From Breznakia sp. PF5-3 (GTDB taxonomy: Bacteria; Bacillota_I; Bacilli_A; Erysipelotrichales; Erysipelotrichaceae), in assembly GCF_029504745.1 (NCBI RefSeq), contig NZ_JAQFIQ010000002.1, forward strand, positions 81,287 to 113,286: a stretch of 32,000 nt of DNA, in the 5' to 3' direction. Position numbers and translations under genes: made by a program. The notes beneath the pieces are model-generated. The model was not told the DNA's origin and did no database searches. It saw nothing but the letters and a program-made list of their open reading frames with translations. Numbering within the stretch: the first letter of the stretch is position 1; each line of letters starts with the position of its first letter. This document shows, in pieces, positions 3,110 to 27,390 of this stretch.

Positions 3110-3193
3110 ATGAAAAAAAGTGGCTTTTTGAAATTATTGATTTGTATAGCTGGTGTACTTATTTTTGGACTTGGTACAAGTGCAGTAAGTGCA
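3110..3193 (+). other. Sec-type signal peptide of the giant protein
   Basis: A KK n-region, a hydrophobic core LLICIAGVLIFGL, and AVSA followed by DE (predicted cleavage after residue 28). There is no lipobox, because residue -1 to the Cys is Ile. Confidence 0.7.
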
Positions 3194-9100: not shown

Positions 9101-12100
9101 GCAGGAACTGTCGCTGTTAGTGGAACGACTACTTCAAATGTTATAAAGAAGAAAGTAAAATCGTTGATTGGAAAAGGTAGAGTAAATACAAAGAATAATA
9201 TCGTCGTAAAAGTTGACAGCGAAGAAAAGATTTTAGCTATCGTTGTTGCAGTAGGTGCTAGTAAAAGTGTAGCAGTACAGGGTTCTGTACCAGTTACAAT
9301 TATTGAAAATGATATTTTGGCATCTATCGATGGTGAAGTAATAGCTACAGATATCAGTATTTCGGCGAAAGATAAAGTCGATGCTGATGTATATGCCGGA
9401 GGCATTGGTGCTTCTAGTAGTGTAGCGATTGGTGCAGCAGTTAATACCTTATATATACAAGGAAAAGTGATTGCTCAAATTGCAGACAGTGCAAATATAA
9501 CAGCTGCAAATTTAAGTATTATTGCAGATTCAGAAAACAACATTCTTACAACCTTAATTAGTGGTGCTGCTTCAGGAACTGTAAGTGTTGTAGGTGTTGT
9601 GAATACAGTATTAATGAGCCAACAAACAAAAGCAGTGCTTGGTAACTCTGTTATTTTAAATATTCAAAAAGATATCTTATTGAAAGCTAATGCAGTGAAT
9701 GACTTTACTTGTTATGTTGGAGCATTATCAGCAGCTGGTACAGTTGCGGTAGGTGCTTCTGTAAATACGGTTAAGTTAGAAAATATCGTTAGCACAGTAA
9801 TTGGAAAAACAGTTGAGATAATCCAAAATACAGATACTAACATTGGTAATCTAACGTTACTTGCAACAGGAAAAGACAGTTTCTTTGGTGTTGTTGCTGG
9901 AATCGCAGGTTCTGGTAGTGTGGCTGTTAGTGCATCAGCAAATACGATTTTGAATACATCTAAAATAACTACGGAAATAGGAACAGATAGTAACATCAAA
10001 ATGGGTGGTAGCCTTTATGTGAAAGCGTACCATGATTTAATGATGAAATTATATCTTGGAACAACAGCTGTATCTGTATATGCAGGTGTGGGAACATCCG
10101 TATTAGTAGTAGTTAGTGAAGTAGCCGTAGCTAATAACGTTGGTGATTCAGCAATTTTAAATTTCACAGGATCAAAAACGAATACAGCTACAAATGGTAT
10201 TACATTCGTAAGTGCCTCAGATGTAGATATTATGAGTGTTGTCACAAGTGCAGCAGGTGGAGCAGCAGGTGTATCACCAACAAGTGCAACCTTTGTACTA
10301 AGTGGTTCAACGAAAAATGTAATTGGTGATAATGCATCATTTACAACCGATAAAAAAGTTAGCATTGATGCAAATAGCAATACAACAATAGCACCATATA
10401 TCGGTTCTGCAGGAGTTGGAGTGGCAGGTATTGGAGCTAGTGTATTAGTCATCAATAGTAGTAAAGAAACATCAACTTATATTGGGAAATCAGCAAGCAT
10501 TAAAGCAGTGGAAGGAATTTCAATAAGTGCAACTTCTAAAAATTCATTCACAGGTTTAGTCATTGGTTTCTCAGGTGGTGCAGTTGGTGTAGCAGCAAGT
10601 GTGAATGCAATGATTATTGAAGATATTGTGAATGCTGTTTCTGATACAGGAAGTTCATTAATATCTAGTAATGGTGCAGTTAGTGTACTTGCAAAGAGCA
10701 CGCAAAATTATGATTTACAAACATATACAACAAGTATTGGAGGTGCAGCAGTACAAGCTTCAAATGCAACAATAACATTTAAATCTGTTATAAATGCAGC
10801 ACTTGCAAATGCTGAAGCATTGAAAGATATTCTCGTTCATGCATTGGCTGAAGAAAATATTGGTACACAGATAGTTGGTGGAGCAGCTGGTGGAATAGCA
10901 GTTGGTGGATCGGTAGCAGTTATTATTTCAAATAATACAATAAATAGTTACATCCAAGATGCTTCTACCCTTGTAAGTAATGGAAATATTACTATAAAAG
11001 CTGATGATAGCTTATCAATAGATTCTAAAACAGCATCATTAAACCTTGGATCGATAGCCGTTGGTGCAGGTGTAAATGTAATTTTAATTCAAAACACAAT
11101 AGCAGCATACATAGGAAATAAAGTAAATGTAAGTGCTGCAAACACGCTAAGTGTTCTTGCAACCCTTAACCGTGTTGTTTCATTGAAGTCATTGGCAGCC
11201 TCAGGAGGACTTGTTAGTGGTAATGGAACTGTAAGTGTAATAAGTTTAGGAATTACAAATGATGAAGTGATGAATAATGCAGCGAAAAACGATGTATCGC
11301 AAGCAAATACGAATGTACAAGAAGCATTAAAAACACTTAAGGTACAACGTGATAATTCAAATAGTGATGGAAATGATATCATAGATGAAGCAAATACTTC
11401 ACTTGATGATATTCAATTTGATCTACTTGGATATTTAATAAATAAAACAGAAAATAATAAAGATAAAACAAGTTCATATATTGGTGAAGGTTCAACAATC
11501 AAAGCCAAAAACATTGTAGTGAGTGCAAGTGAAGCAAATGAGATTACACTTCATTCAGCAGCCGCATCAATTGGTGCAGCAGGAGCTGGAGCAAGTGTTC
11601 TAGTCTTGAAACATGGAAGTTATATTCGCTCATACGTAGGTAAAAATACATCATTGTCAGCAAGTGAAGATATCGATGTAAGTGCAAAAGCAACGAAACA
11701 AAAATATACAATTAATTCTGTAGCAGGTAGTGCTGGAGTTACATTAGCACTGGGTGCAGCAGTTACGTATATGGATATTCGTGGTGTTATCGAAGCATAT
11801 CTTAATGATAATGTAATTGTTGAGAATGTTAGAAATCTAAATGTTAATGCAATTGCAAACTATGTAGTGGATACTCATGCAATAGGAGCTTCCTTAGCGG
11901 GAGCAGGAGCAGTTGGAGCAAGTGTATTGGTAATCAATCTTGCAACAACAATAAGAGCTACTATCAATGATAAAGTAGAAATTAAAAAAGCAAATGATAT
12001 TAAAGTTCATGCCAATTTGACAAATGTATTGAATGCAAAAGCAATGGCAGGAGCAGCAGGACTTCTTGGTAGTGGACAAGCAGTTGTACTTACAATTACA

Positions 12101-15100
12101 ATCGCACCAAGTGTATCCGCATTACTTAAAAATAGTGTGAAGGTTCTAGATAGTTCTAGTATTAGCTTATGGGCTGATGCTGATGTGAAAATAGATGCAA
12201 CCATTACTGGAGCATCAATGGCATATGGTGTTGCTGGTGGAGCAAGTGTAATGACAATTACCAATAATGCGAAAATGACAGCAGGTGTTGGAACATCAGG
12301 AAATATAACTACAGGAACTATGGATGTTTATAATTGTTATAATACAAACAAAGATGGAAGTGTGAAAGCCGATCGCTTCAAAGTATCAGCGACATCTGTT
12401 TCTGGAGCATTATATGCTTCGCTTAACGGATTGGTTGTGACAATCAACGATTTCATGTCGATGGATACATATCTAGGTGGTACAATAAAAGCTGGAGCAA
12501 TAAGCGTAAAAGGAATCGCAGCTTCGATGTTGGATGTTACAGCGAAAGGATTTAGTGTTGGTTTAGGCGCATTAAATGCAATCGTATTAAATGTAAATTC
12601 AAAACAAAATGTATTAACGAGAACTTTAACTTCTGCACAAATAGAAGCGACATCACTGAGTGTAAACTCAGAAGTGTATGCGAAACTTACAGTAAAAGCA
12701 GAAGGAACAAATGGTGGTGCTTTCACTGCTGGAGCAGTGGTAGCAACAGCGACATTAAACCCAAGTATTCAAACCCATATTGGAGATTCTAATGTAATTA
12801 AAACAACCGGTGCAGTAGATGTGAAAACAATCTATAATGTACGCAATGGTATGATCCAAGATGGTATCCTTTTAACAGGAAATAATGCAGGTGGTGGAGC
12901 TATTACAGCAAACTATGTTGATTTAACTGCAATTCATACAGCATCAATTATAACCGCAGTTAATGCAAATTCTAAAATAACTGCAGGTGGAGATATTAAT
13001 GTATTGACCTATGCTGGACTACAGGCAAGTGCAATCGCAACAGCGAAGGCAATTGGAGCAATTGGTATTGGCGATACAAAAACAAATGTAAATGTTGGTG
13101 GAAGTATTACAACATCAATTAGTACTGGTGTGGAATTGAATGCAAGTACCATAAGAATTAAGAGTTATGTCTATGGAAAAGCAATCAGTGAGGTTATAGG
13201 TGCATCATTTGGTGGACTATCAGTTGGTGCTAGTAGAGCGACGGTTACGTTAAATCCAGTAATTGAAACGGTTAGTGGATTAAATGCTAAATTAACAGCA
13301 ACAAAAGATATTCAATTAGTTGGATATTACAATATGAAAACGACGCAACCAACTGCGGAAAATCCAGCAAATGACGTAGAAGGTAATCTAGCCGTTATTC
13401 CAGATTTAGGATTAGGAGCATTTGCAAAAGCGAATGGATCTAGTGGTAATCTGACAGGTGTGATTGGTACGCAAATCACAGTAAATCACAATACAAAAGT
13501 TCGTACAATCATTAAAGCAAATGGACAATTAGTAGCAGGAAATAGTATCTTTACATATGCATATTCGGCAATTCAAAATAGTCCAACTTTAAAGACGGAT
13601 TCCGGTGGTTTAGTAAGTGTTGGTGCAAACCAAGTAAAATCTACAATCCAGGTTGAAACTTTAGTAAAAGTAGAAAATTCAGCCACGCTAAGTGCGCAGC
13701 AGGATATTCATCTTATAAGTTATGCAGATATTAGTGCGAGTGCAGAAACAAGACAATCATCAGGAGGCTTAGTAAATGGAGGAGCACTAAACAGTGCGGA
13801 AACTACAATTACATCAAGTACTAAGATTGAATTGGGACAAACAGTTAGTGTTAAAGCATTAGCAAATGTATTTATGAATGCAAGTACGAAAATTGTAAAT
13901 AGTGCAATTAGTACTGGTAAGAGTGTTAGTGGTGTTGCAATTGGTGAATCAAAAGCAATAAATACAATCACTTCAACAACCAAGGTTATTGTTGGAAAAT
14001 CAAGCACAATAACAGCAGGCGATGTATTGTCATTGATTGCAATTGAAAGTATTAAAGCAACAGCAACAAGTTTAGCTTCTGAAGGTGTCTCTATTTTAGG
14101 AAGTTCAAAAGGTGCTACAGCGAATATCACAATAAATGAAAACATTGGTATTGAAGTTGCTAATTTGGTTACTTTTAGTGCCAAAGAATTGATTTTATTA
14201 TCAACACCAATTATTGAAGTTGTTGGTAATGCCAATGCTACAAATAGTGGTATTGTTGCATTAGGTGAAATCAGTAGTGATGTTACATTATCATTAAATA
14301 ATAAAATTATGTTTGGTGATAATACGAAGTTGCTTTCAACTGGTGACTTAATTATTCAAGCATTAAGTGATATTACAGTAAAAGTAGAAGGTACGGGAGG
14401 ATCTTATGGAGCATTCCCAAGTGCTGTTATTAAAAATACTGTAAACATTACAAATGCAGTGACAAGTGTCAGCTTTGCTAACAACAATGAAGTGGTAGCA
14501 ACAGGTACGCTAAAAGTGAATGCTGAAACAAATCTTGTTGCAACAGTGAAATCGATTATTAAAGGATCACATGGATTTGTTGCACATAATAATAATGCTA
14601 AAGCAATTGCTAATGTAAATGTAAATAACACGATTAACCTTGGAGTAAATGGTGTATATCGTGGAAAAAATATCTACATCTTTGCAGATATTAAGACATT
14701 AAATATTACTACATATGCAGAAAGTAAAAGTTATACAGCAAGTTCAAAAACATATATTGATTCATTGATTACAGTAAATGCAAATGTAACAATAACAGCT
14801 ACTAATGTTACTTTAGCTGCAACTCATGAATTGCATTTATATTCACTTATCAGTAATTTTAAAATGAGTGCAAAAACCGATGCTCGTATTATTGGGGTAA
14901 CTGGTTCAATCTTTGCAAATGCAAAAGCAAATGCAAATATCAAAGCTAAAATAATAATTTTAGGTGCTGATTCTGTACTGATGGGAAATGATATTAATAT
15001 TAAAGCATCATCTCCGGTTAATACGAATTTAGTAAGTGTTTTAAACAACCATACAGAAGTAGATACGGTTGTTGAATATGTATTAGTAGCAGTTCGTAAG

Positions 15101-18100
15101 ACAATGCAAGTAGTACGAGAAGTTACAAAGAAAATTGTAAAATGGTTACCATGGCCATTCAATAAACTCGTGAAATGGATTGTCGAAACAATCGTAGAAA
15201 CGGTTGAATATTTCGTGAATGAATTGGTACCAAAAGTATTAAATAGTGAAATCGATAAAAAAGAAGAGAATAAATATAATCGTGAGAATACCATTACATT
15301 GAATGGTAAAATCTATTATGGATCAAGTGTTCCAATTGAAATCACGATTGATAAAGATGGAAATATTTCATCAACAACAGGAGCAACTGCATATAAAGAT
15401 AAAGATGGTAACATTCATATTACATCGTTTGGAAAAATTGCTTCTGGATCACTTATTATCACATCTTATGCAGGTGAGGTAAATGGAAATGTAACAGTTT
15501 ATCGAAATGTTGATATTTCAATGATTAAGGTTGTAAATGAATCTCCATATAATATTTATATTGGAGGTATCAACTTTAATGATGAGGATATAGAAAATCC
15601 TGAACATGTAATAACAGCAAATATAAATAATTTGGAAATTCTATATGTAAGTGAAGGTGATGGAAAGACAAGAGTAATTATCAATAGTCTCTTTGGAGGA
15701 GATATTGTCTTCGAAAGTGGTATTGAACTATTGAATGGAATCTTAGAGTTGAGTACCAATGCAGATATAAAAACAACTGCAGACGCAAACTTAAGATTCA
15801 AAGAATTAAAGATCTATAAGGCGAGAAATGTGGGAAGTGCAGATAATCGTTTTACGATTTATTTGGCTGATGAAGGATTGGAAGATTCTTATATTACAAT
15901 TGATGCAGCAGAAAATGTATATCTATCTGTTAGTGCATTAGACTTTATTGATCTTAGTGAAGAAGCTTTCCCTGATCGAAAGTTACAAATTATCTTTAAG
16001 AATGTTTCAGTAAGTGGTAAGTTTGATGTTCGTACATCAACAGCAATGTATATTGAAAATATATTATTGATTGATTTTGGTAAAACGAAGTTAGTACCAA
16101 TCACTGAAATTAAAGAAATTTGGGAATGGGATCCTACAGCTGGTGATGATGGTATGGGTGCATATGTATTCTTAGGTGCTCAAGAAATTGTTATAGGCTA
16201 TAAGATCGAAATGGAAAGTGGTGAATCCATTACACCAAAAACGAAGCCAGCAGGATTAGAAGTTGTCTTTGATGGTAAGGTAGAAAGTGGAGAAACATAT
16301 TTTGATATAAAAGATAGTGACTTTATCTTTAGTAAAAATGGAAGTTTAAACAGCACTTACAATACCTTGATTACCAAAGGAAACTTGAGTACACAAAAAA
16401 CCTCTGGAATTGATATTCTTGGTAAATCATTGATTTTAAAAATTGATGGAATGATTGGTAGTGAACAAAATGTTATTCTAACAGCTATTGATACATTACA
16501 AGCAGAAAGCGAAAAAGATGTATATGTGAAAAATAACAAGTTGTTGACAGTGAAAAAATTAGTGGCTGAAAAAGCATATCTTACAGCTGTTGATTTAATT
16601 GTTGAACATGCTCAAAGTGATGTATTGAAACTATATTCAGATAAAGCTATTACAGCAAATATCAGTGTGAATAATTTGTTTGCACAAGCGATTGAAAATA
16701 TCGTAATCACAAATGATAAAACACTTACATTAGAGGGTGTTACAACAAATGCTAATATTAAAATTACTGTGGATGGAAACTTGTTAGGAAACAAAACAAG
16801 TGCTTACCATTTAAAAGGTAAAGAACTTTCAATTCATAGTAATAAAGGTATTGGTAATGCAACTACATATCTAAAGACACACTTACTTACAGATGGATTT
16901 ATCAATGTAGAAGCAAAAGACAATGTTTATATTGAAGAAATAACAGGCAATCTAATTATTAAAGCAATAGATGCAACAAATAAAGCAGTACATTTAAAAG
17001 CAAAAGAAGGAATTCTTGGATTACAAGATGGAACACATATCTATGCGAAAGATGTATACCTGGATGCAACGAAATCGATTGGCTCGGCAACGAGATATTT
17101 GAATATTAAACAAGATGCAGGTGGTAAAGTTGTTGCAAATAGTTTAGAAAATATATATCTTCATGGTGTAGATGGATTAGCAATTGAGTCGATTCAAACA
17201 GCGAAAGATGTATTCTTAAGTGCTAAACAAGATATTATGGCGGTTGGTAATGGCGCTCATATAGTAGCTGTTAATACCGATATAAGAAGCACATTAGGTA
17301 ATGTTGGATCTAGTAGTAATCGTATGGTTTTAAATACGAGTGGATTGGTAAAGGCTTATGCAAAAGAAAGTGTTTATCTAACACACACAGGAAGATTGAC
17401 AATTGACAAGATAGAAGCAGGTAAGGTAGTTGATTTAAAAGCAGTGGATATCTTTAGTGATACAACACCAGCAATTAAAGCAAATAAAGCAATCTTAACT
17501 GCAACGAATGCGCTTGGAAGTAGTTTAGAGCGATTGTATATGTCTGTTTCTGAATTTACACTAACAGCGAAAAATGCTTATATCAGTAATGATAAAGATG
17601 TTGCAGCAGTAGGTGAAAGCAATATTCAAGAGACATTAGATCTTGAAGTGAGTGGAAGTCTATCTGGAAGTAGCGGACATCTATTAAAAGCAAATAAGCT
17701 AAAAGTAGTAAGCGATGCTTCAGTAGGAAGCATGGAAGCAAAAATGAATTTATCTGTGAATGTTCTTGATGTAGTTGCAAAAGCATCTGTATACTTTAAA
17801 AATGATTCAACAAAAGATTTAAGAATTGAAAAAATTCATGCAGGTGATACTGTTGATATGTATACAGGCAATGTAATTGCAGGTGATATTCATGCAAAAT
17901 TCCTAAATGGTGTTAGTACAGGAGCGATGGAACTTCATACAACAATTGATGAAGTTGCTCTGCAGGCTACAAAGAAAATAGCACTATATAACAATACAGA
18001 TGTATTGATTCATACAATTCAAAGTGGAGAACGTGTATTTATCCAAAATGCTGGTCAGGTATCTGGTAAAGCAGGCGTAGTAAATATCAAGGCTTCAGAA

Positions 18101-21100
18101 TTGGAAATGGTTGTTTCACAAGGAATTGGAAATAATTTAGGATATGTAACATTGAATGTTAGTGGAAACATAAAAGTAACTGCAGATAAGTCAATCTATC
18201 TTCATGAGACAAAAGGTAATATGAACATTGATCTTGTGAAGACAAAGGAAACAGCATACTTGAAAGCAGAAAAATCAATTCTTAATGCTTCTACACAAAA
18301 CAATATTGAAGCTCAAAAAGCAGTGCTTGAAGCTGGTGGAAGTATTGGATTGAAGAATAAGTTATTAAAGGTTGATTTGAGTGGATCATTGTATGCAGAT
18401 GGAAATGGTGTCTTTGTGGAAGAAACAAGTGGGGATTTGATTATTGATCAAGTGAATGCTCACAACAAAGATGTTATTCTTTCAACAAATGCTTCATTGT
18501 TTGGTGAAAGTAATAAGACACATATTATTGGAAACAATATTGAATTAAGAACAAAAGGTAGTATTGGAACATCTAAAAATGCACTACAAGTAAAACAAAG
18601 TGCAACAGGTATTCTAAATGCTACAGCGAAAAACAATATATACTTGTATGGAACAGATACGCTTGGATTGGGTGCATTGACAAGTGATGAAAACATTTAC
18701 TTGAGTGCTTATCAAGATATTGAGAATCGATCTGATTGTGCATATAACTTGAAAGCTAAATCAGTAACCCTTGAATCTATAAAAGGTGATATTGGATCAA
18801 AAGATAAGAAAGTTATTCTTAAAGTGCCAAAAGAAATCTATGCAAAGGCATATGGTGGTGTTTACTTATCACATTATGGAAGTGATATGAACATTGGTAA
18901 GATTGAAGCTGGTACGAATGTGGTAATTGATGCACAAGAAAATATCTTTGGTTCATCATCTCCAAGTATCATTGCTGATGCAGCAGTGATAAATGCTAAA
19001 AAAGTTATTGGTTCAAGAAGTGAAAGATTTGTTCTTGATGTAAATAAACTTACTGTAAATGCAGCAAAAACATATCTTACTAACTTGAAGAGTTTACACA
19101 TGTGTGGTGATAGTAATGTAGAAAGTGTATTTGATCTATATGTAAAAGGAAATCTAACATCTGCGAAAAATGCAAATGTTAGTGCGGATACACTCATTGT
19201 TAAAGCGAGTGGTAATATTGGTAATAGTAGCCAAGGATTGAATACTAGTGTATCGAAATTGTATGCAAATGCAAAAGACAATATTTACATTGTAAATGCT
19301 TCTGATAAGGATTTACATGTAAAAGACATTACAAGTAGTAATATTGTTAATATCATTAGTGGCAACATCGTTGTTGATAATGTGAAAACAGATGCTCTTA
19401 GTCTTACAAGTTCAAAAAATGCAACCGTGAATGCAATAGTAAATAAGTTGAATATGAAAGTTAGTGGTAATGCAACCTTCACAAACGCGAAAGACTTATT
19501 AGTGGAAAAAGTTAGTGTTGGTAAGAATATCACATTGCATGTAAATGGAAATATTCTAGCAAATAAAAATACATTATTAGATGCAGTGAATATGACAATT
19601 CGTGCAGATAAGAATATTGGTTCAGCGAATGCATGGTTAAAACTTAAATCAAAAGGCGGAGTATTAAATATTAAAGCTAGTGAATATATGTATGTAGAAG
19701 ATTTAGCGTCAATGAGAATCGGCTCAATGACAGCGTCGAATGCGATTCACTTAAAGGCAACTGGAAGTATAACAGGTGGAGGTATCCAAACCAATACGTT
19801 ACACTTGCAAGCTGGACAGATTGGTCAAGGTATTCAAAGCAAACTATCTACCAATGTGAAAACGCTTTATGCAAATGCTTCAGGTAATATTTATTTGAAG
19901 AATGCAGGAAGTTTGAATATTAAGAATATGGTTTCTAAAGGAAACATATATCTTGAAGCAACATCGATTTTGGGAGATATGATTTCGGCGAATTATCTTG
20001 AAGCAATCGTAAGTGGAACATTGCAGTTTACCTCAAGTGTAAACCGTATGAAACTACAAGCTTCAACAATTCAAGTTCGCAATACAAGAAGTGTTATCTT
20101 GGATGATATTAGAGCACAATCAGTTACCATTAACAATGTTGGAAATGTAACTTCAAATGGTAGAATTTATGCTGAAACAATCGGCTTTAATATTCAAGGT
20201 AATGGTAATTTGAAAATTGCTGGAAGTAAGATTAGTGGAAGTGCAAGTGGTAACTTAAAGATTCACAATAACAAGTCTATGAGTATTACAACAGCAACAA
20301 AACTACAAGCTGGTGGTAATCTTGAAATTGAAGCGAATGGAAAAATCCATGTAGCTGCCAATGCTTCATTACGTGGAAATAGTATTAAGCTAGTTTCATC
20401 GTTGAGTGAGGGATTGGAAATCTTAGGTAAGCTATATGCGAAGACAACAGCATTGTATGGTGGATTGAATAACAAATATATCATTGATCAAGATGCTGGT
20501 GATGTTAGTATTTATTCACGTGTAAGTAATAGTTATCACGCGATTACATTGCTTTCATTAGCGAACAAGTTTGTATTTAATGGAAGTAGTGGAAAAGATA
20601 CAGTTCAAGTAGATATGAAAAACTTCAATGCAACTTCATCAAAACAATTTATCTTTGATGGAGCAGGTGGAGATGATGTATTAACACTTGACTTAAAAGC
20701 AACAGGTACAAATAATCATTATACGATTAAGAATATAAATCGTTTAGAATTGAATGGACAAACATCAGATGATACTTATGAAATTGATCGTGGTGGATTC
20801 GCATACGATCAAGGAAATGGTAAAGATACATATGATGTATCAAACATCGGTAGTGTTAAATTCAATGCACAAGGCGGAAATAATGTATTTAAACTTATTG
20901 ATACATTTGCAAAAACAGAAATTCTTGGTGGTAATGGTAATAACACGTTCTATATTGGTGTTATTGTAAATGATAGTACAAATGCAACGAAGACAACGGA
21001 AGGTTACTTATCAAGAGGTACAAGTCATGATACAACCATTCGTGATGGAAGTGGAAATAGTACATATCGTATCTATTCAACAAAAGGAAGTTTAGTGATT

Positions 21101-21520
21101 TATGCAGGTGAAGGTAGTGATATCTTTACAGTGAAAGCATTTATTACATATGATGATAACGGTGATTTGATTCCTTATAGAAATAAGGGAATGGAGTTCC
21201 ATGGAGATAGTAATGACAAAGTAATTATTATTAAGTCTGCACTATTTGATATGATTTCTCATAATGGTGATGAAATTACAGCTCCAGGTATCATGATCAA
21301 ATTATTCGGTATTGATGATGTGGAAGTAGAAGAATTCACAAGGGCAAAAGGTTCAACAGCAGCAATTGCAACATTTGATTTTATTCTATATAATATGGCA
21401 CAATTGCATAGTAGAGGAATTTTAATCCCATTGATTATCGGCATCATCTTACTGTTATTAGCGATAGGATATCTAATCTATCGAAAAAGAAAGAAGAAAT
21501 TAAACTTAGTAACTTCTTAA
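3110..21520 (+). CDS. Giant (6,136 aa) secreted, C-terminally membrane-anchored repeat protein; putative filamentous beta-helical surface adhesin of unknown family
   Basis: A single stop-free 18,411-nt ORF with a strong SD. It has a signal peptide (MKKSGFLKLLICIAGVLIFGLGTSAVSA/DE) and a C-terminal TM helix followed by RKRKKK. Composition is dominated by G/A/V/I/T/S/N, with very few Cys, Trp or Pro. It contains two long degenerate repeat regions and GGxGxD motifs at both ends. No LPXTG motif is present. Confidence 0.9.
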   Translation: MKKSGFLKLLICIAGVLIFGLGTSAVSADEITLSDTPQSDTPVVTVQSDIKKFDVNGTEYTTLNEAVNAVNTASGDVVFKVPAGTHGTLSIDNVAISKLTIEPTSAGAVSFTDISFKNMKTNLNIDLKSITVNGKINLENASGLVFNATTAQFSTVAIHGMENTTLDFSSRVGAVNFILSGSIGGSVINGGNGNDVFTLNEVVATDLVLDGKAGTNKIVSNISGELTFEATNIKSTSGDIAFANISNVEDTASDHSIVTLPDSDNAIAFTSDAGNIKYDLGGVGFVLNGTGKITVLGGSGNDTITLNGIANPNLTQFSVDGGNGNDKISVVSSITLSNADVKLVGEQIEIVGAKGNIFNILAKSLTLEAKNNASSASKVESKVTIRYAKIQVSADIRILSNGSQLVDIDGQGTSVVKNIDTKSSIELESVEFIASNINISSAAISEISGDDTKSRAVNNISNKSHLSIFGDSSFRATNNLMFSSVSKILSAIEVGAGEIPISIAMNSIVSEALLTIDGNTKLNSSSVAMNVDNIIDSKVLADGSRAPSSQSEASASGAFIAIHNIRQITKGDIGENVKIGGINTPIAKDVSLKVNASLKLDTQAKSIGDGYKGSTGTNISLQGVVQEIKDLLKLTPFADIAAILSDDMLTILGSVNASSETALTKQMVGAFAFNNVKMTTSAKYKADSYITGNLNVISNASINTETIADGSAKVDVGEAVIPIGIGVAVALHKVDYENTANVAVSTLRAKDVNVLANESANTNTSKIVAKAGVNRGDFGIGGAFGITIYNITTKATIDSSQIQATGNVNVITNDKHDVSIDADCSSDKAVGAGIAVLIFEDIAMSQILDSVKILSVKDLNVLTNSISNTILDVKSGGNGGLSIAPGVAVNINLNDILSQCLAATVATGDINVKSVSKKTRKTTSASNLVDKGGIGATVSLVINIDKNKALLGGKVSGREVHVHATSHHRSDAYATASPEGESDPDPDAKETSPEDLVNKLRGAVDQLMGNEGDDKLSDKFSADMSTQEGKIQVAGAVIVVYLETKNEAIIENAEITADKVEVLAKEAVAIYNFANANVSDGVQTGAATAVIVLVSDIQNKAQIKSNVTMNVKALSVVACGDTLEKVNELAKDDNDNKTVTNDKNTFANVSLSGAGASKNGIAGAVVLVFVDQAYDASVDGKVTVLKQDGNTPKIEIKADLKERFYSRGFSEAKYVAGGNNNSTNQSKSKGIAPSFVMNYCSTTANAILASNGAIKTATGAKADVLIQTTFDSSIDAEAEAGSGEGKTATDITIDGAVVLNLLSRDISAKILAGGVVNVTGTLSVLQKTTSTTNAKVHAGAEAKATAVGAAVAVTYFKAKYAAIVSGSVSISGKLSVISEAKTIDIVEATGTSKGVSEKDFKDKFKDFDLKKVLKGESFGSGESTKTGDTVAEFTGGKADQNTSSSILGATNVTTMEPDTNGKTNPKKGEQVAIAAAVAVTILQHDVLASMDGIAKAGEIEIKAINDNNFKSYNGSKASSNGTAITLSVAVAILGSKTEAYGNMMESLGDITISASGSINMDETFKNAVTLLAVGMASVGKEGELSLAGSIAFLKYENVLKAMILENAEVKANGKVSVTAIENNKLAAKAWNYAGAGNSNAVAVGTSFAMIFASSTVQAIIAKGAKLELDALYVEAKRKRVNPNELSFNFEYKEGMFDDFDAFDYIDITNFLASNNYYIEVLGASNASKGNLALQGSFGILMFDNITEAKLEAGVEVTAINDITIKADSDVNVKVITGGVANANQVGIGLNTGTIVDESKVTASIGNAVKLTTNTGGVLIDASSRQDYLVVSVAASKATTAGIAGVVNVILSKNKVNAIIGNQATVIAKKDIQVLAKNDSSFKGISLGATKGGKAGVGCTAAVILIENETNASVGENVTLKADGNIIVKATSSEDLAFIITSAAVSDNVAIGLSGAYAQIESSTIASIGDGHDVTALNLNIETASKTVSKSINGGVTAAGTVAVSGTTTSNVIKKKVKSLIGKGRVNTKNNIVVKVDSEEKILAIVVAVGASKSVAVQGSVPVTIIENDILASIDGEVIATDISISAKDKVDADVYAGGIGASSSVAIGAAVNTLYIQGKVIAQIADSANITAANLSIIADSENNILTTLISGAASGTVSVVGVVNTVLMSQQTKAVLGNSVILNIQKDILLKANAVNDFTCYVGALSAAGTVAVGASVNTVKLENIVSTVIGKTVEIIQNTDTNIGNLTLLATGKDSFFGVVAGIAGSGSVAVSASANTILNTSKITTEIGTDSNIKMGGSLYVKAYHDLMMKLYLGTTAVSVYAGVGTSVLVVVSEVAVANNVGDSAILNFTGSKTNTATNGITFVSASDVDIMSVVTSAAGGAAGVSPTSATFVLSGSTKNVIGDNASFTTDKKVSIDANSNTTIAPYIGSAGVGVAGIGASVLVINSSKETSTYIGKSASIKAVEGISISATSKNSFTGLVIGFSGGAVGVAASVNAMIIEDIVNAVSDTGSSLISSNGAVSVLAKSTQNYDLQTYTTSIGGAAVQASNATITFKSVINAALANAEALKDILVHALAEENIGTQIVGGAAGGIAVGGSVAVIISNNTINSYIQDASTLVSNGNITIKADDSLSIDSKTASLNLGSIAVGAGVNVILIQNTIAAYIGNKVNVSAANTLSVLATLNRVVSLKSLAASGGLVSGNGTVSVISLGITNDEVMNNAAKNDVSQANTNVQEALKTLKVQRDNSNSDGNDIIDEANTSLDDIQFDLLGYLINKTENNKDKTSSYIGEGSTIKAKNIVVSASEANEITLHSAAASIGAAGAGASVLVLKHGSYIRSYVGKNTSLSASEDIDVSAKATKQKYTINSVAGSAGVTLALGAAVTYMDIRGVIEAYLNDNVIVENVRNLNVNAIANYVVDTHAIGASLAGAGAVGASVLVINLATTIRATINDKVEIKKANDIKVHANLTNVLNAKAMAGAAGLLGSGQAVVLTITIAPSVSALLKNSVKVLDSSSISLWADADVKIDATITGASMAYGVAGGASVMTITNNAKMTAGVGTSGNITTGTMDVYNCYNTNKDGSVKADRFKVSATSVSGALYASLNGLVVTINDFMSMDTYLGGTIKAGAISVKGIAASMLDVTAKGFSVGLGALNAIVLNVNSKQNVLTRTLTSAQIEATSLSVNSEVYAKLTVKAEGTNGGAFTAGAVVATATLNPSIQTHIGDSNVIKTTGAVDVKTIYNVRNGMIQDGILLTGNNAGGGAITANYVDLTAIHTASIITAVNANSKITAGGDINVLTYAGLQASAIATAKAIGAIGIGDTKTNVNVGGSITTSISTGVELNASTIRIKSYVYGKAISEVIGASFGGLSVGASRATVTLNPVIETVSGLNAKLTATKDIQLVGYYNMKTTQPTAENPANDVEGNLAVIPDLGLGAFAKANGSSGNLTGVIGTQITVNHNTKVRTIIKANGQLVAGNSIFTYAYSAIQNSPTLKTDSGGLVSVGANQVKSTIQVETLVKVENSATLSAQQDIHLISYADISASAETRQSSGGLVNGGALNSAETTITSSTKIELGQTVSVKALANVFMNASTKIVNSAISTGKSVSGVAIGESKAINTITSTTKVIVGKSSTITAGDVLSLIAIESIKATATSLASEGVSILGSSKGATANITINENIGIEVANLVTFSAKELILLSTPIIEVVGNANATNSGIVALGEISSDVTLSLNNKIMFGDNTKLLSTGDLIIQALSDITVKVEGTGGSYGAFPSAVIKNTVNITNAVTSVSFANNNEVVATGTLKVNAETNLVATVKSIIKGSHGFVAHNNNAKAIANVNVNNTINLGVNGVYRGKNIYIFADIKTLNITTYAESKSYTASSKTYIDSLITVNANVTITATNVTLAATHELHLYSLISNFKMSAKTDARIIGVTGSIFANAKANANIKAKIIILGADSVLMGNDINIKASSPVNTNLVSVLNNHTEVDTVVEYVLVAVRKTMQVVREVTKKIVKWLPWPFNKLVKWIVETIVETVEYFVNELVPKVLNSEIDKKEENKYNRENTITLNGKIYYGSSVPIEITIDKDGNISSTTGATAYKDKDGNIHITSFGKIASGSLIITSYAGEVNGNVTVYRNVDISMIKVVNESPYNIYIGGINFNDEDIENPEHVITANINNLEILYVSEGDGKTRVIINSLFGGDIVFESGIELLNGILELSTNADIKTTADANLRFKELKIYKARNVGSADNRFTIYLADEGLEDSYITIDAAENVYLSVSALDFIDLSEEAFPDRKLQIIFKNVSVSGKFDVRTSTAMYIENILLIDFGKTKLVPITEIKEIWEWDPTAGDDGMGAYVFLGAQEIVIGYKIEMESGESITPKTKPAGLEVVFDGKVESGETYFDIKDSDFIFSKNGSLNSTYNTLITKGNLSTQKTSGIDILGKSLILKIDGMIGSEQNVILTAIDTLQAESEKDVYVKNNKLLTVKKLVAEKAYLTAVDLIVEHAQSDVLKLYSDKAITANISVNNLFAQAIENIVITNDKTLTLEGVTTNANIKITVDGNLLGNKTSAYHLKGKELSIHSNKGIGNATTYLKTHLLTDGFINVEAKDNVYIEEITGNLIIKAIDATNKAVHLKAKEGILGLQDGTHIYAKDVYLDATKSIGSATRYLNIKQDAGGKVVANSLENIYLHGVDGLAIESIQTAKDVFLSAKQDIMAVGNGAHIVAVNTDIRSTLGNVGSSSNRMVLNTSGLVKAYAKESVYLTHTGRLTIDKIEAGKVVDLKAVDIFSDTTPAIKANKAILTATNALGSSLERLYMSVSEFTLTAKNAYISNDKDVAAVGESNIQETLDLEVSGSLSGSSGHLLKANKLKVVSDASVGSMEAKMNLSVNVLDVVAKASVYFKNDSTKDLRIEKIHAGDTVDMYTGNVIAGDIHAKFLNGVSTGAMELHTTIDEVALQATKKIALYNNTDVLIHTIQSGERVFIQNAGQVSGKAGVVNIKASELEMVVSQGIGNNLGYVTLNVSGNIKVTADKSIYLHETKGNMNIDLVKTKETAYLKAEKSILNASTQNNIEAQKAVLEAGGSIGLKNKLLKVDLSGSLYADGNGVFVEETSGDLIIDQVNAHNKDVILSTNASLFGESNKTHIIGNNIELRTKGSIGTSKNALQVKQSATGILNATAKNNIYLYGTDTLGLGALTSDENIYLSAYQDIENRSDCAYNLKAKSVTLESIKGDIGSKDKKVILKVPKEIYAKAYGGVYLSHYGSDMNIGKIEAGTNVVIDAQENIFGSSSPSIIADAAVINAKKVIGSRSERFVLDVNKLTVNAAKTYLTNLKSLHMCGDSNVESVFDLYVKGNLTSAKNANVSADTLIVKASGNIGNSSQGLNTSVSKLYANAKDNIYIVNASDKDLHVKDITSSNIVNIISGNIVVDNVKTDALSLTSSKNATVNAIVNKLNMKVSGNATFTNAKDLLVEKVSVGKNITLHVNGNILANKNTLLDAVNMTIRADKNIGSANAWLKLKSKGGVLNIKASEYMYVEDLASMRIGSMTASNAIHLKATGSITGGGIQTNTLHLQAGQIGQGIQSKLSTNVKTLYANASGNIYLKNAGSLNIKNMVSKGNIYLEATSILGDMISANYLEAIVSGTLQFTSSVNRMKLQASTIQVRNTRSVILDDIRAQSVTINNVGNVTSNGRIYAETIGFNIQGNGNLKIAGSKISGSASGNLKIHNNKSMSITTATKLQAGGNLEIEANGKIHVAANASLRGNSIKLVSSLSEGLEILGKLYAKTTALYGGLNNKYIIDQDAGDVSIYSRVSNSYHAITLLSLANKFVFNGSSGKDTVQVDMKNFNATSSKQFIFDGAGGDDVLTLDLKATGTNNHYTIKNINRLELNGQTSDDTYEIDRGGFAYDQGNGKDTYDVSNIGSVKFNAQGGNNVFKLIDTFAKTEILGGNGNNTFYIGVIVNDSTNATKTTEGYLSRGTSHDTTIRDGSGNSTYRIYSTKGSLVIYAGEGSDIFTVKAFITYDDNGDLIPYRNKGMEFHGDSNDKVIIIKSALFDMISHNGDEITAPGIMIKLFGIDDVEVEEFTRAKGSTAAIATFDFILYNMAQLHSRGILIPLIIGIILLLLAIGYLIYRKRKKKLNLVTS
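4780..15050 (+). repeat. Coding array of degenerate ~54-58-aa (about 165-175 nt) repeats, roughly 50-60 units by eye
   Basis: The recurring unit is x-A-x-[IV]-G-x-x-[AV]-x-[IV] ... [IL]-x-[IV]-x-A ... G-x-G-x-[AV]-[AV]-[GS]-[AV]-S-V-x-V. Examples are AGVGVAGIGASVLVIN (10409-10456), IGAAGAGASVLVLK (11570-11611) and LAGAGAVGASVLVINL (11894-11938). The repeats are conserved at protein level only. I saw no long identical DNA repeats. Boundaries are approximate. Confidence 0.6.
16928..19690 (+). repeat. Two colinear super-repeat units (495 aa and 426 aa) built of ~75-80-aa sub-repeats; a partial third unit follows
   Basis: Unit A starts YIEEITGNLIIKAIDATNKAVHLKAKEG (16928). Unit B starts FVEETSGDLIIDQVNAHNKDVILSTNAS (18413), exactly 1,485 nt later. 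A third unit starts YVEDLASMRIGSMTASNAIHLKATGS (19691). A and B align without gaps for over 300 residues at roughly one-third identity by eye, for example KSIGSATRYLNIKQDAGGKVVANSLENIYLHG against GSIGTSKNALQVKQSATGILNATAKNNIYLYG. Confidence 0.65.
21419..21499 (+). other. C-terminal transmembrane anchor plus basic stop-transfer tail of the giant protein
   Basis: ILIPLIIGIILLLLAIGYLIY (21419-21481) is followed by RKRKKK (21482-21499), 6 more residues and the stop. No LPXTG-like sortase motif precedes it. Confidence 0.75.
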
Positions 21521-23188: not shown

Positions 23189-23208
23189 ATGAAAAAGAGG
23201 TGGTAGAT

Positions 23209-23931
23209 TTGGCACGTATTCATTCTTTTGAAAGCTTTGGAACGGTAGATGGACCAGGAGTCCGTTTTGTTGTTTTTATGCAAGGTTGTCCACTTCGTTG
23301 TTTGTATTGCCATAACCCTGATACTTGGGAAGTAAACAGGGGAAAAGAGTATGGTGTGGATGAAGTATTTGAGCAGATAATGAAATATTACAACTATATA
23401 AAAGATGGTGGTGTCACACTAAGTGGTGGAGAACCTCTTTTGCAGATTGATTTTGCAATTGAATTGTTTAAGAAGTTAAAAAAAGAAGGATTACATACTT
23501 GTATTGATACCTCTGGAATTACATTTCAAGAAAACAATGATAAAGAACTTCAAAAGTTTGAAGAACTATTGAAATATACAGATTTATTTTTGTTGGATAT
23601 CAAACAGATGAATCCTAAAAAACATAAGCTTTTAACAGGGGCTGAAAATAAGCATACATTGGCTTTTGCTAGCTTTCTAGATAAGCATCATAAGTCATTA
23701 TGGATTCGTTATGTACTTGTCCCTGGATACAGTGATGATAAACAAGATCTTTATGCATTGCGATCATTTTTAGATACCTTGCATAATGTAGAAAAGATAG
23801 AAATACTTCCTTATCATACTTTGGGAGTATCGAAATATGAGAACATGCAAATGGAATATCCTTTAAAAGGTGTTTTAACACCTTCAAAGGATAGTGTAGA
23901 TGAAGTGAAAAAAATTTTAGGAGTGAAGTAA
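23209..23931 (+). CDS. pflA: Pyruvate formate-lyase activating enzyme (radical SAM glycyl-radical activase)
   Basis: IHSFESFGTVDGPGVRFVVFMQGCPLRCLYCHNPDTW contains the CxxxCxxC cluster motif, and GGVTLSGGEPLLQ is also present. Length and colinearity fit PflA. The start is ambiguous. TTG 23209 has GAGGTGG at good spacing, whereas the GTG 23200 in the ORF track overlaps that SD. Confidence 0.9.
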   Translation: MARIHSFESFGTVDGPGVRFVVFMQGCPLRCLYCHNPDTWEVNRGKEYGVDEVFEQIMKYYNYIKDGGVTLSGGEPLLQIDFAIELFKKLKKEGLHTCIDTSGITFQENNDKELQKFEELLKYTDLFLLDIKQMNPKKHKLLTGAENKHTLAFASFLDKHHKSLWIRYVLVPGYSDDKQDLYALRSFLDTLHNVEKIEILPYHTLGVSKYENMQMEYPLKGVLTPSKDSVDEVKKILGVK

Positions 23932-24270
23932 ATGTTGAAAAATGAAAATTTTAAAGAAGTACTAGAAAACGAAGAATTTTGTTTGGTACTTGTAAGTGGT
24001 GATGGTTGTGCAAACTGCACCACCATGACACCAATTGTGAATCAGATGCGAGATAAGTTTGATGAGCTAAGTGTGTATGTTGTGGATATTAACCAAAGCA
24101 ATCATAAGATAACAGAATTTTATGAAATTGAGGTCGTTCCAACGATTTTGTTACTCCATCGAGGGCATGTGATTTCGAAAGTTACAGGGTATCAACCAGA
24201 GGAGATTTTGGAAATATATATCGATTGTAAAATCGGGGAATATAAGCAAAGAAAAGTATATGCCAATTAA
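23932..24270 (+). CDS. Thioredoxin-fold protein with a CANC (CxxC) motif
   Basis: 112 aa. LVLVSGDGCANCTTMTPIV...VDINQ...EFYEIEVVPTILLLHRGHVISKVTGYQPEE matches the thioredoxin pattern (CxxC after beta1 and a cis-Pro VP-T before beta3). ATG follows directly after the pflA TAA, and TAGGAG lies 8 nt upstream. Confidence 0.7.
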   Translation: MLKNENFKEVLENEEFCLVLVSGDGCANCTTMTPIVNQMRDKFDELSVYVVDINQSNHKITEFYEIEVVPTILLLHRGHVISKVTGYQPEEILEIYIDCKIGEYKQRKVYAN

Positions 24271-24298
24271 TGACAATGAGGGGCTTATGTGTTATAAT
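24270..24298 (+). promoter_or_regulatory. Sigma-A-type promoter of pflB
   Basis: The -35 is aTGACA (24270-24275). After a 17-nt spacer comes an extended -10, TGtTATAAT (24290-24298). Confidence 0.55.
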
Positions 24299-24369: not shown

Positions 24370-26379
24370 ATGTACAAAGGCTGGGAAGGATTTAAAGCGG
24401 GAAAATGGAATAAAGAAATCGATACCAGAGATTTTATTCAAAGAAATTATACGCCTTATGAAGGTGATGAAAGTTTCTTGGAAAAGCCAACTGATGCTAC
24501 AAAAAAATTGTGGGATCAAGTAACCGATTTAAATCAACAAGAAAGAGAAGCCGGCGGAGTATTAGATGCAGATACAAAAATTGTTTCTTCGCTAACATCT
24601 CACAAAGCTGGATATCTAAATAAAGACTTAGAGAAAATCGTAGGTTTTCAAACAGATAAACCGTTCAAACGTTCACTACAACCTTTTGGTGGAATTAGAA
24701 TGAGTGAATCTGCATTAAAAGCTTATGGATATGAAATTGATTCAGAAGTAGTAGAAATTTTTACGAAATATCGTAAAACACATAACCAAGGTGTATTTGA
24801 TGCATATACACCAGAAATGCGACGTGCTCGTACATGTGGAATCATTACTGGATTGCCAGATGCATATGGACGAGGAAGAATCGTGGGGGATTATCGTCGA
24901 GTAGCACTTTATGGTGTGAATTATTTAATAAAGGATAAACAGGATTTATTAAATACAGTATTATTAGGTTCAATGACGGAAGAAAGAATCCGTGAACGTG
25001 AAGAAGTTTCCGAACAAATCAGAGCATTAACTGCTTTAAAAGAGTTAGCAAATATCTATGGATGTGATATTTCAGAACCAGCTACCAACGCACAGGAAGC
25101 TGTACAAGCAGTTTATTTTGGATATTTAGCAGCTGTAAAAGATCAAAATGGAGCTGCTATGTCACTAGGACGTACATCAACATTCTTGGATATTTATATT
25201 CAAAGAGATATTGATAATGGAGTAATCAGTGAAGTTGAAGCACAGGAACTTATGGATCATTTCATTATGAAGTTACGTTTAGTGAAATTTATGAGAACAC
25301 CAGATTATAATGAATTGTTCTCAGGTGACCCAACTTGGGTAACGGAATCTATTGGAGGTATGGGATTAGATGGACGTACCTTAGTTACAAAGAATTCATT
25401 TCGAGTGTTGCACACACTTGTAAATTTAGGGCCAGCACCAGAACCAAACCTAACGGTTTTATGGTCTACACGCTTGCCAAATAACTTCAAACGGTATTGT
25501 GCAAAGATATCGATTGAGACAAGTTCAATTCAATATGAAAATGATGATTTGATGCGTGTCGAAATGGGTGATGATTATTGTATTGCTTGTTGTGTATCTT
25601 GTATGAAAGTTGGAAAGGATATGCAATTCTTTGGAGCTCGTGCCAACCTAGCAAAATGTTTACTATATGCTATTAATGGTGGTGTTGATGAAAAGAAAAA
25701 GATTCAAGTATCACCAAGAATGGAACCAATTACTTCAGAGTATTTAGATTATGATGAAGTAATCCAAAAGTATACGCAGATGATGAGCTGGTTAGCAGAG
25801 TTGTATGTAAATACTTTAAATGTTATTCACTATATGCATGATAAGTATTCATATGAAGCAGTAGAGATGGCTTTGCATGACCATGATGTAAGAAGATTCT
25901 TTGCAACTGGTATTGCTGGATTATCAGTAGTTGCTGATTCTTTATCTGCAATCAAATATGCAAAAGTAAAAGTAGTTCGTGATGAAGATGGTATTGCAGT
26001 AGATTATGCGGTAGAAGGAGATTTTCCAAAATATGGAAACAACGACGACCGTGTTGATGAAATTGCAGCAAACCTAGTAAAAATATTTATGAACATGATC
26101 AAAGAACATAGAACATATCGTGGAGGAGTTCCTTCAATGAGTATCCTTACGATTACATCAAATGTTGTATATGGAAAGAAAACGGGAAATACACCAGATG
26201 GACGTAAAGCTGGAGAACCATTTGCACCAGGTGCAAACCCAATGCATGGTAGAGATACTACAGGAGCAGTTGCTTCTTTAGAATCGGTTGCCAAATTACC
26301 ATATGAATATTCTAGAGATGGAATTTCAAACACATTCTCGATTATCCCTGAAGCGTTGGGGAAAGATGATGAGAAATAG
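24370..26379 (+). CDS. pflB: Pyruvate formate-lyase (formate C-acetyltransferase), catalytic body lacking the glycyl-radical domain
   Basis: 669 aa, colinear with PflB: N-terminal WEGFKAGKW, the active-site Cys-Cys in CIACCVSCM (codons 25588-25593), and an end at ...[15 protein letters not shown]. coli PflB reads ...SIVPNALGKDDEVRK... at this point and continues for ~75 more residues. The ORF is terminated by an in-frame TAG at 26377-26379. Confidence 0.9.
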
Positions 26380-26385
26380 GAGGTC

Positions 26386-26622
26386 ATGATGAAAGATAGA
26401 GTTGATAACTTAGTGACGATGATTGATGGATATGCACAAAGTGGTGGTCACCATTTAAATGTAAATGTATTTAATCGTGAAACCTTATTGGATGCTCAAA
26501 AACATCCTGAGAAATATCCACAACTTACAATCCGTGTATCTGGATATGCTGTTAATTTTAATAAACTATCGAAAGAACAACAGGATGATGTAATAAATCG
26601 TACAATGCACGAAGGTATGTAG
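26386..26622 (+). CDS. Stand-alone glycyl-radical domain (C-terminal PFL domain, GrcA/YfiD-like), in the same frame as pflB
   Basis: The sequence ends [65 protein letters not shown] and carries the RVSGYAV radical motif (Gly codon 26542-26544). AGGAGG lies at 26378-26383. ATGs are at 26386 (2-nt spacing) and 26389 (5-nt spacing, the more likely start). Confidence 0.8.
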
Positions 26623-26626
26623 CAAA

Positions 26627-26656
26627 AGAGTGTTTCGAAAGAAACATTCTTTTTTT
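26627..26656 (+). terminator. Rho-independent terminator of the pfl operon
   Basis: A 10-bp stem, AGAGTGTTTC (26627-26636) with GAAACATTCT (26641-26650), contains one G-U pair and a GAAA tetraloop. A T-run follows, ending at 26656. Confidence 0.7.
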
Positions 26657-26715: not shown

Positions 26716-27390
26716 ATGTACAAAATTGTAATTGTTGAAGATGATCAAAACATTCGTAATGAATTGGGAGAATTTTTGAATAAGAATGGCTATGAAACAA
26801 CTTTGGTTGTGGATTTTAAGCATGCTGTAGAGAAAACATTAGAGGCACATGCACATGTGTTATTGTTAGATTTAAATTTACCAATTGTTGATGGTTATTA
26901 TATTTGTCGAGAGATTCGTAAGCAATCCAACTTACCAATTATTGTTGTGACAAGTAGAGATAGTGAAATGGACGAATTGATGAGTATGAATTTAGGGGCT
27001 GATGATTTTGTAACGAAACCTTATAACTTACAAATTCTCTTAGCACGTATTGAACGATTGATAAACCGTGCTTATGAACATGAAGAGAAGACATCACTGA
27101 TGGTTGGTGATATTATTTTGGATATGAGTAAAAGCTTATTGCAATATCAAGATCAAACAATTGAGTTAACCAAAAATGAGTTTCGTATATTACATTGCTT
27201 ATTTCGTCATAAAAATGAAATTGTATCTCGTGATGAACTGATGAACGATATGTGGGATGGAGATCTTTTTGTTGATGACAATGCTTTGACTGTAAACATT
27301 AATCGTGTTAGAAAAAAATTGGACTATATTGGATTACAGGATCTAGTACAGACAAAACGAGGATTAGGATACATCGTGTATGAAGATTAG
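26716..27390 (+). CDS. OmpR/PhoB-family response regulator (BceR/GraR-like)
   Basis: The receiver domain has IVEDD, LLLDLNLP (phospho-acceptor Asp), VVTSRD and VTKPY. The C-terminal winged helix has LTKNEFRILHCLF...LTVNINRVRKKL...GLGYIV. It overlaps the downstream kinase gene by 11 nt. Confidence 0.9.
   Translation: MYKIVIVEDDQNIRNELGEFLNKNGYETTLVVDFKHAVEKTLEAHAHVLLLDLNLPIVDGYYICREIRKQSNLPIIVVTSRDSEMDELMSMNLGADDFVTKPYNLQILLARIERLINRAYEHEEKTSLMVGDIILDMSKSLLQYQDQTIELTKNEFRILHCLFRHKNEIVSRDELMNDMWDGDLFVDDNALTVNINRVRKKLDYIGLQDLVQTKRGLGYIVYED

Follow-up and report, generated by a model that had tools for sequence, protein, structure and literature searches.

A stretch of 32,000 nucleotides from Breznakia sp. 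PF5-3 (contig NZ_JAQFIQ010000002.1, positions 81,287 to 113,286; hereafter the window, meaning this stretch at its full length) probably encodes a functional pyruvate formate-lyase (PFL) made of two polypeptides, a reading to which we assign a probability of roughly 0.78 from sequence comparison: the catalytic body of the enzyme ends at a stop codon ahead of the segment bearing the radical glycine, and that segment is supplied by a separate small open reading frame (ORF) directly downstream. PFL was the founding member of the glycyl radical enzymes and is the most widespread of them (2026 review). Its main vulnerability is to oxygen, which cleaves it irreversibly at the radical glycine. A preliminary description of this DNA had proposed a naturally fissioned PFL with a replaceable radical module. 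The fission into a body and a separately translated radical piece is strongly supported, because the break point is conserved among relatives, the junctions vary, both pieces are under purifying selection, the gene for the PFL-activating enzyme (pflA) is adjacent, and the catalytic Cys-Cys pair and Arg residues are intact; that the two-piece form is obligate and the radical subunit replaceable is plausible, the case for replacement being circumstantial and resting on unlinked copies of the small gene in relatives. The elements of the locus, in window coordinates, are as follows.

24370–26379, + strand: PFL catalytic body, 669 aa, equivalent to residues 10–680 of Escherichia coli PflB and lacking β10, the glycine loop and the C-terminal helix
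25588–25593, + strand: catalytic Cys407-Cys408 in IACCVS, equivalent to E. coli C418/C419 and aligned to AIACCVS
26377–26379, + strand: stop codon TAG of the body, read from the sequence; the closest relatives have TAA one codon earlier
26378–26383, + strand: Shine-Dalgarno (SD) sequence AGGAGG, overlapping the body stop; 73/73 split junctions carry an SD-like motif ahead of the small ORF
26386–26622, + strand: small glycyl-radical subunit, 78 aa if started at 26386 and, likelier, 77 aa from 26389; equivalent to PflB 681–759
26533–26553, + strand: RVSGYAV motif, in which Gly53 (26542–26544) corresponds to the radical site Gly734 of E. coli

Re-reading the sequence bore out the arrangement first described: a 669-aa body of about 75 kDa, whose ORF ends in ...GAT GAT GAG AAA TAG, is followed by an AGGAGG overlapping the stop and by two candidate ATG starts (26386 and 26389, i.e., 6–9 nt past the TAG) of a RVSGYAV-containing ORF in the same frame. 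That TAG is a genuine stop in this organism likewise holds, as the small ORF and the response regulator gene at 26716–27390 terminate in TAG too; the nine other ORFs checked end in TAA. Translation of the small chain probably starts at the second ATG, giving 77 aa (~9 kDa), because this ATG lies 5 nt from the AGGAGG as against 2 nt for 26386, stand-alone homologues among the matches listed are mostly 77 aa long, and the three closest loci start the small ORF at an ATG aligned with it. The junction had been estimated to be about 7 residues longer than the corresponding part of E. coli PflB; alignment instead gives 3 additional residues followed by a 5-residue deletion.

The two chains together account for one PFL, at a level of homology that chance could not explain. 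The body scores 1123.9 bits on the formate C-acetyltransferase profile TIGR01255 (cutoff 994.2) and occupies profile positions 2–664 of 744, and the small ORF covers positions 665–744, i.e., the rest of the same profile; similarly, the 106 positions of Pfam Gly_radical are cut in two, with 1–51 in the body and 51–106 in the small ORF. Compared with solved E. coli PFL structures, body residues 4–668 match 10–679 and small-chain residues 5–77 match 681–758, and a global alignment to E. coli PflB (from NC_000913.3) places the break at V680|R681, with 65% identity over body plus small chain and 66% over the body region by itself. In the alignment, E. coli C418/C419, R176 and R435 have their counterparts in the body motifs IACCVS, GRGRI and FGARANL, and the Cys-Cys pair and Arg residues are invariant in 30 relatives. 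The radical glycine segment RVSGYAV is not on the body polypeptide and is found on the next ORF. Across 77 small ORFs this segment is at least 90% conserved, and these ORFs also keep an N-terminal NL(V/I)..LDGY and nearly all residues from GGHHLNVNV to RT.H.

The anatomy of the break was read from a model of a fused relative, P0239 of Massilicoli timonensis, predicted from an alignment that combined fused proteins, bodies and small chains (pLDDT 84.7, pTM 0.89; TM-score 0.96 and 1.9 Å to E. coli PFL 2PFL). In this model, the break falls in the short GKD loop that caps the N-terminus of helix 666–682; this helix is followed by strand 687–692 (HLNVNV, termed β10 after PMC8683613), a helix, the glycine hairpin at 712–721 and the C-terminal helix. 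Because the break lies in a loop just ahead of helix 666–682, the small chain is, as modeled, a clean structural module. AlphaFold2 was also run on the body alone, from a 30-row alignment of low diversity; the resulting model (pLDDT 58) served only as a query against the PDB fold library.

The split is old and common to many taxa. A scan of 185,579 species genomes for the small ORF yielded 80 loci, 76 of them with an adjacent body; in each locus we located both pieces by tblastn before reading the junctions. At 73 of the 76, the gene is split at one site, just past (A/S)LGK(D/E)(D/E), and in the other three (L024, L061 and L063) it is fused. Among the taxa carrying the split are Erysipelotrichaceae, numerous Clostridia (Lachnospiraceae, Blautia, Dorea, Sellimonas, Ruminococcus albus, Oscillospiraceae and Christensenellaceae), Atopobiaceae/Coriobacteriaceae (Lancefieldella rimae, Olsenella uli and Collinsella), Gastranaerophilales, Treponemataceae and Acholeplasmatales. 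The GKDD site is where 110 of the 120 nearest body clusters terminate, the other 10 being fused, and stand-alone homologues of the small protein, 76–83 aa long, form more than 100 clusters. (A search of a representative library with the body was uninformative: clustered at 50%, the family collapses, and matches were mostly to fragments.) In two metagenomic small-subunit entries, P0001 (111 aa) and P0023 (103 aa), a segment of about 30 residues occurs twice; both entries come from short contigs and are probably assembly artefacts.

Although the site is constant, the junctions themselves are not. Counting the window, the 73 split junctions use TAA (52), TAG (12) or TGA (9) as body stop, and the spacer between body and small ORF (median 67 nt) ranges from a 4-nt overlap to 406 nt. 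The overlap, in a Candidatus Ornithomonoglobus locus (L053, ~4761–4820), joins stop and start and is the tightest coupling among the junctions. Even in the closest relatives, which are syntenic and 93% identical, the junction reads GAG TAA GCGGAGGTAATGAAC ATG, the stop coming one codon sooner and the spacer measuring 15 nt, and in B. blatticola the spacer is 23 nt long and the frame different. The split site is thus conserved in the closest genomes, but the TAG-AGGAGG-ATG sequence of the junction is not, and a stop-SD-start cassette inserted recently in this particular genome is not borne out.

That body and small ORF are in frame, with one stop and two codons between them, is how a single nonsense change would look, and it could in principle come from an error of sequencing or assembly, or from a nonsense mutation that arose recently in this strain and left a pflB pseudogene and a small ORF open by chance. 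We consider this extremely improbable: the same break recurs in 73/76 loci with varied stops, spacers and frames and in 110/120 of the nearest clusters, in the closest relatives the stop comes one codon sooner, and the small ORF is preceded by a perfect SD sequence. In addition, at near-saturated synonymous divergence from the closest relatives (dS 0.55–1.4, Nei-Gojobori), dN/dS is about 0.05 for either piece, with estimates of 0.04–0.10 for the body and 0.05–0.12 for the small ORF. The same junctions speak to programmed read-through of the TAG, by which a full-length PFL of about 749 aa would be made and the split would be only apparent, or would set the ratio of long to short product. The window taken by itself would allow this, its stop and restart being in frame with no stop between; across the 73 junctions, however, the three frame offsets occur 20, 19 and 34 times with no preference for the in-frame one, further in-frame stops interrupt 13 of the 20 in-frame junctions, gaps reach 406 nt, every junction has its own SD and start, and the window holds no tRNA or known RNA element. 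Read-through is accordingly very unlikely, and since the relatives' junctions use all three offsets, the shared frame of the two ORFs, to which the earlier account had attached some meaning, carries none. Sequencing error, recent nonsense mutation and conserved read-through were all rejected because the junctions vary and dN/dS is low, and the reading we retain is a genuine two-polypeptide PFL.

The least improbable rival concerns the role of the small protein: it might be a spare part of the GrcA type for a full-length PFL encoded elsewhere, with the truncated body inactive or serving another role. Its end-to-end match to NCBIfam NF038360, named 'autonomous glycyl radical cofactor GrcA3', would favor this, as would the existence of unlinked copies of the small gene, and a second pflB may lie outside the loci examined. 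The match scores 158.2 bits for the 78-aa and 157.7 bits for the 77-aa form (cutoff 158); relatives score 154.5–167.1 bits, the small chains of Ruminococcus albus, Lancefieldella and Gastranaerophilales reaching 161–167, and the ORF falls below the cutoffs of the other spare-part families (96.9 vs 170 bits for GrcA, TIGR04365; 99.5 vs 145 bits for GrcA2, NF008341). Yet the name NF038360 implies a repair part, whereas here the protein is encoded next to a PFL without a radical domain; purifying selection on the body is strong, and none of its catalytic residues has been lost; it is co-located with the small gene and, in most related loci, with pflA; and no full-length PFL occurs in the flanks (up to 6 kb on each side) of the 76 loci. 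The small chain moreover keeps the helix equivalent to PflB 681–692 that is absent from E. coli GrcA and has no GrcA-like N-terminus of 60 residues. We therefore regard a spare-part role as unlikely: because the partner PFL lacks the domain, the genomic evidence points to a constitutive subunit rather than a repair part.

Unlinked copies of the small gene are found in several relatives. On Breznakia pachnodae-like contigs (L085–L087, 6001–6234), a second 77-aa paralogue, unlinked to PFL, sits between DegV genes and genes for an ECF sigma factor, a Fur-family regulator and rubrerythrin, and in an uncultured Erysipelotrichaceae (L002, 5995–6237) the order is small gene, Fur-family regulator, rubrerythrin. 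The unlinked paralogue is itself conserved, with pN 0.056 as against pS 0.79 in comparison with the small ORF of the window. Two further unlinked copies (L046 and L069, ~6001–6240), one in a Lachnospiraceae and one in a Gastranaerophilales locus, lie in unrelated contexts. Copies beside oxidative-stress genes would fit a replaceable radical subunit whose supply is timed by stress, although this evidence is circumstantial.

Fused, single-chain PFLs are nested among the split relatives (L024, L061 and L063; P0183, P0214, P0216, P0222 and P0234–P0240; L088, 4001–6229). They are 741–743 aa long, or 794–895 aa from stop to stop in L063 and L024, and the fused gene of Massilicoli timonensis has a different neighborhood with no adjacent pflA. 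In a neighbor-joining tree of 192 bodies (Fitch parsimony, 50 bootstraps), each of the 12 ingroup fused forms falls within the split group in 50/50 bootstraps, at scattered positions, and distant full-length PFLs fall outside it, E. coli PflB in 33/50 bootstraps only; the tree is weak, and full-length PFLs are under-sampled in it. The simplest reading, within the limits of this tree, would be one old fission followed by several re-fusions. The fused Treponemataceae protein (L063) lends support to this, as its linker keeps a Cys-containing tail and an internal Met ahead of QIDNLV, which suggests re-fusion. The junction DNA of another fused relative (L088) was inspected for an SD remnant and offered nothing convincing.

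The genes and signals around the two ORFs are these.

23200–23931, + strand: pflA, the PFL-activating radical-SAM enzyme (TIGR02493, 323.8 bits, cutoff 231.75; Pfam Fer4_12 and Radical_SAM)
23932–24270, + strand: thioredoxin-like ORF of 112 aa between pflA and the body, with CANC instead of CGPC (Pfam Thioredoxin, E=1e-12)
24270–24298, + strand: promoter-like site before the body, ATGACA-17-TATAAT, matching 11/12 positions plus a TG extension; a consensus match only
26624–26653, + strand: intrinsic-terminator-like hairpin with a 13-pair stem and a T-run, directly 3′ of the small ORF

No promoter-like or terminator-like site was detected in the junction between body and small ORF, so that the two would form one transcription unit. 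An RNA element at the junction was considered and ruled out, tRNA and Rfam scans of the window having given no match. The gene order (M42 peptidase, phosphoribosyltransferase, pflA, thioredoxin-like ORF, body, small ORF, response regulator, histidine kinase) is the same on contigs carrying Breznakia pachnodae proteins, whose body shares 93% identity with that of the window, and pflA adjoins in most related loci. Two operon types can be distinguished: pflA-trx-body-small, the type of the window, in which bodies end at most 2 residues past GK(D/E)(D/E), and body-small-pflA, in which the body mostly has an additional acidic, often Cys-rich tail of 11–51 aa. The thioredoxin-like ORF occupies the same position in 17/17 related loci of the first type and in L082–84 (carriers include L001, L003, L004, L006, L008–L013, L015, L026, L027, L033, L080 and L082–84) and is absent from the second; it could serve as a reductant for PflA or as a guard of active-site thiols.

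Tailed bodies occur in L007, L014, L016–L023, L025, L028–L032, L034, L035, L037–L045, L047, L049–L060, L062, L064–L068 and L070–L079, with sequences past GK(D/E)(D/E) such as VFMGDLDIDLGLDQGCCETTVY and ...EPDCACCEPN...; the body of the window has no tail. Directly past the PFL terminator lie a response regulator (OmpR type, 224 aa, 26716–27390) and a histidine kinase (336 aa, ending at 28390), both on the + strand, overlapping by 11 nt and syntenic in the B. pachnodae-like contigs. At the other end of the window, a giant ORF (3110–21520, + strand, 6136 aa) begins with a signal-peptide-like N-terminus, MKKSGFLKLLICIAGVLIFGLGTSAVSA; neither half has a Pfam match at E<=1e-5, and DNA tandem repeats were not found in it. 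The product is probably an enormous protein, either secreted or displayed at the cell surface.

Several points weigh against a functional two-polypeptide enzyme. Complex formation, activation and activity are all read from the genes; the small ORF sits right at the GrcA3 cutoff of NF038360; and a second intact pflB could be present elsewhere in the genome, of which the window covers 32 kb. Fused PFLs of 741–743 aa are found among close relatives (10/120 of the nearest clusters), so a single-chain form is viable in this lineage and an advantage of the split is hypothetical. Finally, truncated E. coli PFL bound YfiD (the E. coli GrcA) only weakly (PMC8683613), and tight association of the natural pair is therefore an assumption.

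If the two chains do make up a working PFL, the steps could run as follows. A ribosome that ends the body at the TAG would sit on the AGGAGG and reinitiate at ATG 26389, so that both chains would be made in roughly equimolar amounts. The small chain would then dock non-covalently, its helix (DNLVxMIDGY) and strand (HHLNVNV) completing the ten-stranded barrel and its RVSG*YAV hairpin setting the glycine beside Cys407/Cys408. PflA would abstract the hydrogen of Gly53, whether the small chain is still free or already bound to the body, whereupon the radical would move to the cysteines and pyruvate be cleaved as in an ordinary PFL. Because oxygen cleaves the backbone at the radical glycine, damage would hit only the 9-kDa chain, and activity could be restored by making a new chain of 77 residues instead of about 746; in relatives, the unlinked copies beside oxidative-stress genes might serve this replacement supply.

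A wider proposal, which we advance tentatively and to which we give somewhat less than an even chance, is that a large group of PFLs, spread over several bacterial phyla, is an obligate heteromeric glycyl radical enzyme with a dissociable 9-kDa 'cartridge', its translation coupled to that of the body; the cartridge would be activated by PflA and exchanged after oxygen damage while the 75-kDa body is kept. Extra copies would be wired to Fur-family/rubrerythrin regulons, E. coli GrcA would be a derived special case of a natural design that is far more common, and many gut Lachnospiraceae, Ruminococcus, Erysipelotrichaceae and Atopobiaceae would have the split enzyme as a main PFL. Thousands of genes of gut microbes annotated as 'GrcA', 'GrcA3' or 'glycine radical domain-containing protein' beside 'formate C-acetyltransferase' would then belong to one enzyme, and PFL would be miscounted by annotation pipelines that demand that the large chain contain the radical domain. 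The native proteins would also allow tests of PflA activation outside the barrel, of segment docking and of subunit exchange as repair.

The locus resembles E. coli PflB (PDB 2PFL/1H16) in its Cys-Cys pair, Arg residues, RVSGYAV match and adjacent PflA gene, but E. coli PflB is a single chain of 759 residues, whereas here the chain stops at the equivalent of residue 680, and 681–759 is a separate gene product. Like E. coli GrcA/YfiD and phage T4 Y06I (PDB 6OWR), the product is a small stand-alone homologue of the PFL C-terminus, and the known ones can carry the radical glycine and work in trans: residues 19–77 of the small ORF align with GrcA 68–126, and the preceding ~18 residues align with PflB 681–698. 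E. coli GrcA, however, has a disordered N-terminus of about 60 residues, coexists with intact PflB and acts after oxygen damage (PMC13450708; PMC8683613), whereas the chain described here has 77 aa, lacks this N-terminus, starts with the conserved helix equivalent to PflB 681–692 and is encoded right behind a PFL whose own chain lacks the radical domain.

That the radical domain of PFL can be supplied in trans, as the preliminary description had stated, is established: engineered E. coli PFL(1–695) combined with YfiD has wild-type specific activity once activated (Andorfer et al., 2021; PMC8683613), and GrcA sustains formate production in an E. coli strain with PflB G734A (PMC12338860). The engineered protein is cut 15 residues further downstream than the natural 680|681 break, by which the natural small chain gains a conserved helix; this additional helix (the 681–692 equivalent) may act as a docking handle and provide the affinity missing from the artificial pair.

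Two PDB entries titled 'Formate acetyltransferase', 38la (687 aa) and 38lb (739 aa), both from other organisms, align with the body up to ...SLGKED and have no radical segment. Entry 38la is 77% identical to the body of the window and 82% identical to its best match among the collected proteins; 38lb is probably a body with an acidic/Cys-rich tail. A comparison of the small ORF with the two entries gave no match, the small chain being in neither. Both are absent from our structure library, which ends on 8 April 2026, and a literature search returned no paper on them and no use of the name 'GrcA3'. A 2017 genome paper took the small gene as a 'replacement part' (PMC5476646), and the June 2026 review of glycyl radical enzymes treats YfiD-type spare parts only (PMC13450708); the literature search, this review included, found no description of a natural two-piece PFL. 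The initial remark that no obligately two-piece PFL was known to have been characterized thus agrees with the literature searched, but databases already hold both the family (NF038360 GrcA3) and the structures (38la and 38lb): the gene pair is already catalogued, and its meaning as a naturally two-piece PFL appears to be undescribed.

If this PFL is an obligate two-chain enzyme, it would be the first natural glycyl radical enzyme with its radical on a separate small subunit. Both 4-hydroxyphenylacetate decarboxylase and benzylsuccinate synthase pair a large catalytic subunit with one or more small ones, and both carry the radical glycine on the large subunit; in the PFL of Breznakia, unlike in these enzymes, the radical glycine lies on the small chain.

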